This document shows positions 12,001-15,000 of a stretch of DNA of 33,234 bases, in pieces. Position 1 is the stretch's first letter, and every line of letters begins with the position of its first letter. A program made the position numbers. This stretch comes from a virus (taxonomy: Duplodnaviria > Heunggongvirae > Uroviricota > Caudoviricetes): positions 1 through 33,234 of IMG/VR virus record IMGVR_UViG_2585427777_000018. One strand, given 5' to 3'.

Positions 12001-15000
12001 TCAAACGCACGCATGATCGTCATCGATCCACGTTATAACGACACTGCTGCCGGGCGTGAAGATGAATGGCTGCCCATTCGCCCTGGCACCGATGGCGCAC
12101 TGGCCTGTGCGATTGCCTGGGTACTGATTACTGAAAACATGGTCGATCAGCCATTTCTCGACAAATATTGTGTTGGTTACGATGAAAAAACGCTGCCCGC
12201 CAACGCACCACGTAACGCGCATTATAAAGCCTATATTCTGGGCGAAGGGCCTGACGGCATAGCTAAAACGCCGGAATGGGCAGCAAAAATCACCAGCATC
12301 CCGGCAGAAAAAATTATCCAGTTGGCACGAGAGATCGGTTCAGCAAAACCTGCTTATATTTGTCAGGGTTGGGGGCCACAACGACATTCCAACGGCGAGC
12401 AAACATCCCGCGCTATTGCCATGCTTTCCGTTCTCACCGGCAACGTCGGCATAAACGGCGGCAACTCAGGCGTACGCGAAGGTAGCTGGGATCTGGGGGT
12501 AGAATGGTTCCCGATGCTCGAGAATCCTGTTAAAACGCAGATTTCCGTCTTTACATGGACAGATGCCATCGACCATGGTACGGAAATGACCGCGACCCGT
12601 GATGGTGTTCGTGGAAAAGAAAAACTGGATGTCCCCATCAAGTTTTTATGGTGCTACGCCAGTAACACATTGATCAATCAACATGGCGACATCAATCACA
12701 CCCATGAGGTGCTTCAGGATGACAGCAAGTGCGAGATGATTGTTGGCATTGACCACTTCATGACGGCCTCGGCTAAGTATTGCGATATCCTGTTGCCCGA
12801 CCTGATGCCAACAGAGCAAGAAGACCTTATCTCTCATGAATCTGCAGGGAATATGGGCTATGTGATCCTCGCCCAACCCGCAACCTCAGCAAAATTTGAA
12901 CGCAAACCCATCTACTGGATGCTGAGTGAAGTCGCCAAACGCTTAGGACCAGACGTTTATCAAAACTTTACTGAAGGTCGCAGTCAGCATGAATGGATCA
13001 AATATCTCCATGCGAAAACGAAGGAACGTAACCCTGAGATGCCCGACTACGAGGAGATGAAAACGACCGGGATCTTTAAGAAAAAATGCCCGGAAGAACA
13101 CTACGTCGCTTTCCGCGCATTCCGTGAAGATCCACAGGCAAACCCGTTGAAAACACCTTCGGGGAAAATCGAAATTTATTCTGAACGACTGGCGAAGATT
13201 GCAGATACCTGGGAATTGAAAAAAGATGAAATTATTCATCCCCTTCCTGCGTATACTCCAGGTTTTGATGGCTGGGACGATCCCCTGCGGAAAACCTATC
13301 CACTGCAGTTAACGGGCTTCCATTACAAAGCGCGTACCCACTCCAGCTACGGCAATATTGATGTGTTACAGCAGGCCTGCCCACAAGAGGTGTGGATCAA
13401 CCCCATTGATGCTCAGGCACGCGGTATCCGTCATGGCGATACCGTGCGGGTATTTAACAATAATGGAGAAATGCTGATTGCCGCAAAAGTGACTCCGCGT
13501 ATTCTGCCTGGCGTTACCGCCATCGGGCAAGGTGCGTGGCTTAAAGCGGATATGTTTGGTGACCGGGTCGATCACGGCGGCAGTATCAATATTCTGACCT
13601 CTCACCGCCCTTCACCGCTGGCAAAGGGAAACCCGTCGCACAGCAATCTTGTCCAGATCGAAAAGGTTTAAGGAGTAGCCCATGACCACACAATATGGAT
13701 TTTTTATCGATTCCAGCCGCTGTACTGGCTGTAAAACCTGCGAACTGGCGTGCAAAGATTTTAAAGTTGGTTACGTATCGTTTAAAATCAATTAGATAGC
13801 CCGTCATTTCTGCGCTCACACGTCCCAACATTGAAAAACATGCAAAGCTTTGTAAGCCGGTGCAAAGCTTTGTGTGTCTCACTTTTGTCCCAATACCAAT
13901 CCGAATCCACCCTTTGTCATCATTGAGAAATGGCAAGGAAGAAAAGGATGTTACTGCACGATTTGACAAATCCGCCAGAGCTATCGCATACTGACCGCAC
14001 TACAACGTCAGCGGTCAACCGCACCCGATAGCTTTGCGGCTTTTTTATGCCTGTTTACAGGTATCGCCATATCAATGGCGGGTCGAGAGAGCCTAATACA
14101 ATACCCTTTCGGGAAATACGCTCCGCCGTCTGACGCGGTAGTTGAAGCCCGCCCCCCCACTAAGGTGGCAGTCAATACTAAAACGTCAGGAGTCATAATT
14201 ATGACTAATCAACTCATTCCCGTTTTCGATGGAACCATCAACAACGAACCAGTTTTACTTTGCAATGCTCGCAATCTGCACGCTTTTCTTGGTATTGGTA
14301 AAATGTTTGCTCACTGGATCAAGGACAGGCTGGGTGAATATGGATTCGTTGAAAATCAAGATTTTGTGATTGCTTGCAAAAATTGGCAAGCAAAAGGTAG
14401 AGGCGGTCACAACCGCAAGGAATACCACCTCACCCTCGACACAGCCAAAGAGCTTGCGATGGTTGACGACTGCGTCCAATACTGACTATACTCCGCGCCG
14501 AGGCCTCGAAAACCTCCCAAAAGCGGATTAAACCAACCCCGTCAGTGTTGGATTTTTTATGCCTGTTATTCAGTGATAGCACAGTGTGCGGTCACATCCC
14601 CGATCAATGTCGGGAGGGCGACGAATACAACACCCGCAAGGGGAATAAGTCCGCGGTATCTTTTGGGCCGTTTCGAGCCTCCCGGCACCACATCTTGTGG
14701 TGGCATTTCTCGAAAAAAGCCAAAGGAGGTCATCATGACCACTCAACTCATCCCTGTGTTTGAAGGTACAATCTCAAATGAACCTACGCTTCTGGTGAAC
14801 GCGCGTGATTTGCATGGATTTTTAGAGGTAGGTAAAGATTTTTCTAACTGGATACGGGCCAGGCTAAACGAGTATGGATTCGTAGAAAATTTAGACTACA
14901 TTCTATTTTCACCAAATTTGGCGAAAACTCCAGGCCGCCGCCGCAAGGAATACCACCTCACCCTCGACACAGCCAAAGAGCTTGCGATGGTTGAACGTAA

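Follow-up and report, generated by a model that had tools for sequence, protein, structure and literature searches.

What two identical, palindromic repeats do at the edge of a prophage is the question raised by the DNA analysed here (the window, 33,234 nucleotides of IMG/VR virus record IMGVR_UViG_2585427777_000018). The window runs through rspB-rspA-ynfA-ynfB-speG-ynfC-ynfD-ynfE-ynfF and the first 84 nt of ynfG, and then passes into phage DNA. Shortly inside the phage sequence, the exact 13-mer TGCAAAGCTTTGT occurs twice, at 13841-13853 and 13861-13873 (20 bp from start to start), and each copy contains the perfect 10-bp palindrome CAAAGCTTTG. A related motif, TGCAAAGATTTT, lies at the junction itself (13751-13762). 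A preliminary description had grouped the three motifs as an att core plus arm-type or operator sites for a dimeric DNA-binding protein, such as the integrase (Int), the excisionase (Xis), or a repressor. A check of the sequence bears out the positions of all three motifs, the 20-bp spacing of the twins, and the palindrome in each. Neither the 13-mer nor the 10-mer palindrome has an exact copy in the window beyond these two, and because an exact 13-mer is expected to recur within 30 bp only about 0.03 times per window (our own arithmetic), the twins are not a product of chance. The answer reached below is that the twins are part of the arm of a P22-type attachment site, in a well-studied system and at a known integration site. 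As a whole, the earlier observation is partly confirmed, and the interpretation placed on it is partly supported.

Set against intact ynfG and the other prophage junction, the region proves to be a prophage attachment junction. The match of uninterrupted ynfG reaches 13766 in thousands of genomes, and in 79 of 5426 complete E. coli genomes it continues past this position into the phage. The homology had been thought to end at 13762, with the twins 90 and 110 bp into the prophage; because it runs to 13766, they lie 75 and 95 bp inside. Integration in ynfG has been published for the Stx1 phages POCJ-13 and 75/02 (PMC5447701, PMC10562709), which share this location with the window prophage (PMC5447701), and positions 13767-14201 are 99.3% and 90.6% identical to terminal DNA of the POCJ-13 and 75/02 phage records, respectively. 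Unlike these two phages, the window prophage shows no stx gene in the part that lies within the window. The element is a short-tailed, 933W-like lambdoid prophage, and since its late genes are directed toward the ynfG junction, this is the int-distal end. In lambda terms, positions 13751-13900 are attR, an ordinary int-distal junction of a P22-family system at a known site.

The same comparison defined the crossover core. Across the end of the homology, wild-type ynfG has GCGTGCAAAGATTTTAAAG|ATCTTGG where the window has ...TTTAAAG|TTGGTTACG. Written out as whole sites, attB in wild-type ynfG is GCGTGCAAAGAT TTTAAAG ATCTTGGCC, the window junction is GCGTGCAAAGAT TTTAAAG TTGGTTACG, the int-side junction of strain FORC_069 is GGTGAGCAACAAC TTTAAAG ATCTTGGCC, and the unsplit (free) attP of viral contig L121 is GAGCAACAAC TTTAAAG TTGGTTACG. 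The phage arm is also present on a second contig of the L121 isolate (L085), with a left flank of only about 50 bp. Strand exchange is placed by these alignments in the 7-bp overlap TTTAAAG at 13760-13766. In DLP12/argU its aligned counterpart is TTAGAAG, the overlap in the anticodon loop, with five of seven positions the same. In attB the overlap is bracketed by an inverted repeat (AAGAT|TTTAAAG|ATCTT) that mimics the anticodon stem-loop targets of related integrases. On the host side, TGCAAAGAT is most likely the core half-site; it is replaced by GAGCAACAAC in attP. The half-sites B, B', C, and C', as read off the sequences, have in common a G at -8 and an A at -5 and at -2. The first motif of the preliminary description is therefore not the att core: the true core overlaps only its last 3 bases, the TGCAAAGAT portion is found only in the host, and the core had been misplaced by 4-9 bp.

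To place the twins within the arm, we counted offsets from the first base of the overlap (13760). In six attP sequences (the ynfG phage, P22, ES18, ε34, 2G7b, and BZS1), the hexamer GTC(C/T)CA recurs at -103, -92, +62, +116, and +127, with agreement to within one base; inside the window only the three positive-offset sites are present. Phage HK446, whose Int is 54% identical to that of P22, has no GTCCCA, but instead carries G(G/T)CACAA at -103, -92, +73, +114, and +125, with the single site at +73. A different integrase is thus accompanied by a different motif in an unchanged 2+1+2 layout, which identifies these repeats, and not the twins, as the arm-type sites of Int. The twins begin at +81 and +101, between the +62 and +116 arm-type sites. 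Consequently, the earlier suggestion that the twins are themselves arm-type Int sites does not hold, and the suggestion that they occupy a part of the att arm used by accessory recombination proteins does. We regard it as very probable that the twins belong to the accessory part of the att arm, in the stretch bounded by Int arm sites.

This assignment is reinforced by homology along the whole arm. Over the roughly 130 bp that follow the core, identity to the int-distal arm of the annotated P22 attP (BK000583) is about 79%, and positions 13767-13900 align without gaps, through the twins, with DLP12 attR (envY-ompT), thrW-associated islands, and the annotated attP of SfII as well as that of P22. 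In the relatives in FORC_069 and L121, where the genes lying beyond the window end can be read, Int is 71% identical to P22 Int, and Xis is P22-like and matches Pfam HTH_17 (P22 Xis has 116 aa and its homologues 116-123 aa). No solved structure related to the Xis was found. The IHF-like site between the core and the +62 arm site is a putative one, and its TCAA block is kept at the same position in P22, SfII, and DLP12. Taken together, five features of a heterobivalent tyrosine-integrase attachment site of the P22/lambda type were found: a shared overlap, inverted half-sites, arm-type sites on both arms, a cognate Int and Xis encoded beside the other arm (in the relatives), and homology to a characterised attP. 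The prophage appears to have been inserted by a tyrosine integrase of the P22/DLP12 family. A tRNA scan of related junctions returned only tRNA fragments, as expected for attR-type junctions, and full-text literature searches by the site sequences gave no useful match. The positions of the features are collected in Table 1.

Table 1. Features of the attachment arm at the ynfG junction, followed by neighbouring features of the window.
Feature	Positions	Strand	Sequence	Remarks
Proposed host-side (B) core-type Int half-site	13751..13759	+	TGCAAAGAT	Host ynfG sequence; present in uninterrupted ynfG
Common core (overlap), 7 bp	13760..13766	+	TTTAAAG	Sole block identical in attB, both junctions, and free attP
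Putative phage-side (C') core-type half-site	13767..13775	+	TTGGTTACG	First phage-specific bases, identical in attP; function suggested by position
Putative IHF-like site	13786..13798	+	AATCAATTAGATA	WATCAANNNNTTR with one mismatch; between core and +62
Block adjoining the +62 arm site	13810..13821	+	CTGCGCTCACAC	
Int arm-type site +62	13822..13827	+	GTCCCA	
Helically phased array	13834..13870	+	AAAAA; unit 1 TGCAAAGCTT; unit 2 TGTAAGCCGG; unit 3 TGCAAAGCTT	Units start at 13841, 13851, and 13861
Interrupted dyad or hairpin, 17 bp	13838..13877	.	loop AGCCGG	Arms 13838-13854 and 13861-13877
Degenerate Int arm-type site +116	13876..13881	+	GTCTCA	GTCCCA in P22 and ES18
Int arm-type site +127	13887..13892	+	GTCCCA	
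Truncated ynfG	13683-13796	+		Cut after about 28 codons; short phage-derived tail to a stop codon
Two hairpins followed by CTTTTTT	13992-14047	+	CCGCA...TGCGG	Named stem at 14019-14039, fold z -2.95
sRNA-Xcc1 (RF02221) match	14077-14161	+		51.5 bits
sRNA-Xcc1 (RF02221) match	14609-14694	+		73.4 bits
Large gene with LPD38 domain	18878-24376	-		1832 aa in the window
End of a second, separate prophage	2105-3400	+		Upstream of rspB, at the Qin position

Within the accessory segment, the twins turn out to be parts of a longer pattern. The array reads TGCAAAGCtt/TGTAAGCCgg/TGCAAAGCtt, and the twins are its units 1 and 3 plus 3 bases each. The homologous stretch of P22 is TGCAAAGCC-TTGCAAACC-GATGCAAAGAT, again three units that repeat every 10 bp. 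The palindromic look of units 1 and 3 in the window arises because the reverse complement of such a tandem 10-mer is a cyclic permutation of the 10-mer itself. The self-contained palindromes stressed earlier are thus real in this prophage, but they are specific to its lineage, since the homologous units of DLP12 and SfII (TGTAAAGCCTTGC and TGCGAGGCCTTAT) are neither identical nor palindromic. What is conserved is the phased array of three units at 10 bp and, in cassettes of the TGCAAAG type, one larger interrupted dyad as well.

To see how far the array is conserved, attachment arms were surveyed by a scan of viral contigs and species-representative genomes. The approximately 45 bp between the arm sites (13833-13875 in the window) are occupied by at least 11 unrelated cassettes with sharp boundaries, which have been exchanged among phages with near-identical Int, Xis, and flanking sites (loci L009, L154, L087, and others). 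With one representative per cassette type, the consensus is GTCCCATGATG..AAAAGaTagAAAg.cAT...AA..caT..AAA....Tg..tGTCCCA, and the autocorrelation of A content across the eleven types peaks at 0.42 at a lag of 10. Phased AT..AAA units are the only universal feature of the cassettes.

Recombination directionality factors, of which Xis is one, generally bind cooperatively to direct repeats of weak specificity that are spaced by one helical turn, and they bend the DNA (PMC7498355); P22 Xis bends its attP site (PMC7498355). The array, with direct repeats spaced by about a helical turn on a single arm and beside an Int arm site, has a layout that looks typical of such factors. The elements along the arm follow the order of P22 attP: the putative C' half-site, the IHF-like site, the +62 arm site, the phased array of about 45 bp, and the +116 and +127 arm sites. 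In the mechanism that we propose, the array would serve as a platform for a P22-type Xis, a winged-helix recombination directionality factor of the HTH_17 family, which would bind cooperatively with one monomer per helical turn. Binding, together with the phased A-tracts, would bend the arm, and during excision this bend could bring the core within reach of Int molecules held at the arm sites on either side. Homology, core, geometry, and phasing are all observed, whereas the protein that binds the array is inferred, and Xis is our best guess. We give roughly an even chance to the array being the Xis-binding and bending segment for excision.

Several results weigh against this proposal. If the array were read by Xis, covariation of the cassette with the Xis DNA-binding domain would be expected, and none was seen. 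ES18 and P22 have an identical Xis DNA-binding domain and the same Int, core, and arm sites, and yet the ES18 cassette is without TGCAAAG; likewise, L043 and L087 have near-identical Xis domains and different cassettes. (L050 and L088 were left out of this comparison; they are apparent counter-examples, and probably hybrid junctions of tandem elements at thrW.) Because the cassette does not covary with Xis, an Xis bound at the array would read only the phased AT..AAA pattern. The dyad in TGCAAAG-type cassettes is also not accounted for by monomers on direct repeats. Alternatively, the array could be mainly an intrinsic bend, or Xis could bind CTGCGCTCACAC, which may be either an extension of the +62 arm site or an alternative Xis site. 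This block shows no variation in P22, SfII, DLP12, and the thrW islands, and almost none in ε34 and BZS1; its invariance among the scanned viral contigs reflects how they were selected, because the scan was anchored on it.

The dyad itself suggests another explanation. It could be an RNA or DNA hairpin acting as a terminator or processing site for int transcripts that run through attP, in analogy to tI/sib; in the prophage state it could provide insulation from ynfEFG read-through, and its place between the Int sites would then be incidental. A terminator scan flags the dyad, its RNA fold reaches -22.7 kcal/mol (z -4.7, compared with -4.1 for the P22 counterpart), and the annotators of ε34 labelled the homologous segment a 'possible rho-independent terminator for transcription from int'. 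Among 35 distinct sequences of the TGCAAAG type, pairing holds in 89.6% of cells, and at four pairs both partners have changed (column pair 15-34, for instance, is CG, GC, AU, or GU); none of 500 shuffles reaches the observed values, and slid controls collapse. HK446 (L159, 3806-3850) has a compensated TGCAAAG-type dyad followed by a degenerate GTCTCA-like pair, both beyond its own G(G/T)CACAA arm sites; this seems to be the remnant of an older P22-type arm, and its hairpin has nevertheless been kept by compensatory changes. The 17-bp stem in the window, however, has only 5 G-C pairs, and a run of just four T starts 5 nt past it. The two strands give folds of -19.0 (plus) and -20.2 (minus) kcal/mol, with the plus strand better in 14 of 35 sequences; because both fold equally well, there is no strand-specific RNA signal. 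A significant hairpin is missing from 9 of the 11 cassette types, including the L087 cassette that is paired with a P22-like Xis. Cassette type shows no pattern with the orientation of the first downstream open reading frame (ORF), which for the TGCAAAG type is plus in 28 cases and minus in 38, and the Rfam search of the hairpin gave only a meaningless match to mir-19 (E = 0.033). Further downstream lies the separate pair of hairpins listed in Table 1, the second of which ends in a T6 run (14019-14047); this region is a more canonical terminator candidate than the twin dyad for transcripts leaving int and attP. We consequently consider a hairpin role for the dyad doubtful, although it deserves to be weighed first among the alternatives.

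The compensatory changes nevertheless call for comment, since the 17-bp dyad has been kept in this way from Escherichia to Pantoea and Erwinia. P22-type recombination can do without the dyad, since ES18, with the same Int and Xis, lacks it. A second function of the TGCAAAG-type cassette, independent of Int and Xis, is conceivable but not probable; it could be that of a bidirectional transcriptional insulator at the prophage boundary, or of a site for a symmetric protein. The dyad cassette may also belong to a group of regulatory cassettes that are swapped within attP.

If, on the other hand, no specific protein binds the array, it could be an intrinsically curved spacer in which phased A-tracts replace a protein-induced bend between +62 and +116/+127. 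This would fit with the 10-bp phasing of A-tracts as the sole feature common to all cassette types and with the free exchange of cassettes among phages with identical Int and Xis, as well as with the report that P22 Int carries out recombination without IHF (PMC7581858). However, every cassette type is conserved across genera and the TGCAAAG type keeps its compensated dyad, which argues for a constraint beyond curvature alone. A T two to three bases before each AAA is also conserved, and this resembles a recognition unit. Pure curvature is, in our estimation, an unlikely account.

Activator sites for CII/C1, of the form TTGC-N6-TTGC on the minus strand, fare considerably worse. The minus strand of P22 and ε34 reads TTGC-N6-TTGC-N6-TTGC, the ε34 record labels the homologous segment 'putative CII-binding sites', and a CII-family regulator is encoded by the prophage family. 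In the window, however, the minus strand reads TTGC-N6-TTAC-N6-TTGC, with the middle unit broken, and DLP12 and SfII have only one TTGC unit. The sequence holds no convincing -10 element at the right distance, a promoter at the array would run antisense to int, and the same phage types also use cassettes without TTGC. We consider this explanation very unlikely.

Finally, one protein (Int or a repressor) might bind all three TGCAAAG motifs, with the first as the att core, as the preliminary description implied. The junction motif and the twins share TGCAAAG and TTT, or 10 of 13 positions, and the 21 nt at 13751-13771 are 76% identical to 13841-13861 at the start of the first twin, a resemblance that is probably due to chance and to the palindromic TTTAAA. 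In calling the motif triple, that description read too much into a 7-mer that occurs seven times in the window against an expectation of 7.5. P22, SfII, and DLP12 keep the arm units although their core flanks are unrelated, so the likeness of the half-site to the twins is coincidental. In the roughly 24-kb early half of the FORC_069 prophage, which includes the repressor-cro intergenic region, there is no copy of the twin motif with up to two mismatches, and the idea that the twins are repressor operators fails on this point; the operators of the immunity region look like TATAAC..GTTAT. With its first copy made of host DNA that is missing from attP, its 7-mer at chance frequency, its arm units kept beside unrelated cores, and both the Int arm-type sites and the operators of different sequence, a single protein on all three motifs is extremely improbable. 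Near the core we also observed a perfect 9-bp inverted repeat, GATTTTAAA (13757-13765) and TTTAAAATC (13781-13789), that joins the core to the IHF-like site; this, too, is probably the result of chance and of the palindromic TTTAAA.

In the lambda attP, the P arm carries the Xis sites X1-X1.5-X2. The resemblance of the ynfG arm to it is one of architecture: accessory sites are found on the int-distal arm only, 13-bp units 20 bp apart flank a weaker unit and adjoin Int arm-type sites, and the DNA bends on binding (PMC7498355). There is no sequence similarity, however, and the P22-type Xis is larger and belongs to another family. The window also differs from lambda in having an extra arm-type site between the array and the core, and phased A-tracts and a dyad in the array. 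The likeness to P22 extends to the arm identity, the same five GTC(C/T)CA sites, the Int and Xis, and the run of three TGCAAA units, spaced by 10 bp, that lies between the +62 and +116 sites. The TGCAAAG units of P22 are confined to one arm; in the ynfG phage, an additional TGCAAAG, which P22 lacks, is found at -68, at the 3' end of int. The P22 core lies at the thrW anticodon loop, whereas that of the window has been retargeted to TTTAAAG inside ynfG, with other half-sites. Compared with P22, the window has a degenerate middle unit (TGTAAGCC), units 1 and 3 that are now identical and each palindromic, and GTCTCA at +116. In DLP12 attR of E. coli K-12 (an argU fragment at envY-ompT), a host-side fragment, a 7-bp overlap, and a homologous arm follow one another with the same order of sites; its target is a tRNA, whereas that of the window prophage is a protein-coding gene.

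Other observations concern the genes on either side. The truncated ynfG is annotated in RefSeq as an incomplete 4Fe-4S protein, and because the insertion cuts the gene, functional YnfG should be missing from lysogens. The best genome matches cover 84-93% of the window prophage in 7-9 pieces, and the large LPD38-domain gene, which encodes 2784 aa (8355 bp) in FORC_069, is shortened in the window; the prophage therefore carries deletions or rearrangements. The two RF02221 matches stand at the 5' ends of antirepressor-like ORFs. One, just under the gathering score of 53, is just upstream of the ant start at 14202, and the other, above it, is just inside the ORF at 14573..15364; both may represent a conserved leader RNA of phage ant genes. 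The second prophage contains a 431-aa integrase ORF, and it matches an annotated pair of excisionase and site-specific integrase of strain AST198.

These results leave the current understanding of site-specific recombination unchanged. For the ynfG-integrating phages of the Stx type, POCJ-13 and 75/02, the exact crossover (TTTAAAG) and the layout of the arm are now fixed, and this can be of use in calling prophage boundaries, in typing by polymerase chain reaction, and in predicting whether such prophages still excise. For the P22 family more widely, the segment between the Int arm sites of attP emerges as a swappable cassette that is constrained mainly by helical phasing. The point that this raises about excisionases, namely how loosely they may read DNA, is a modest one, and it is testable.

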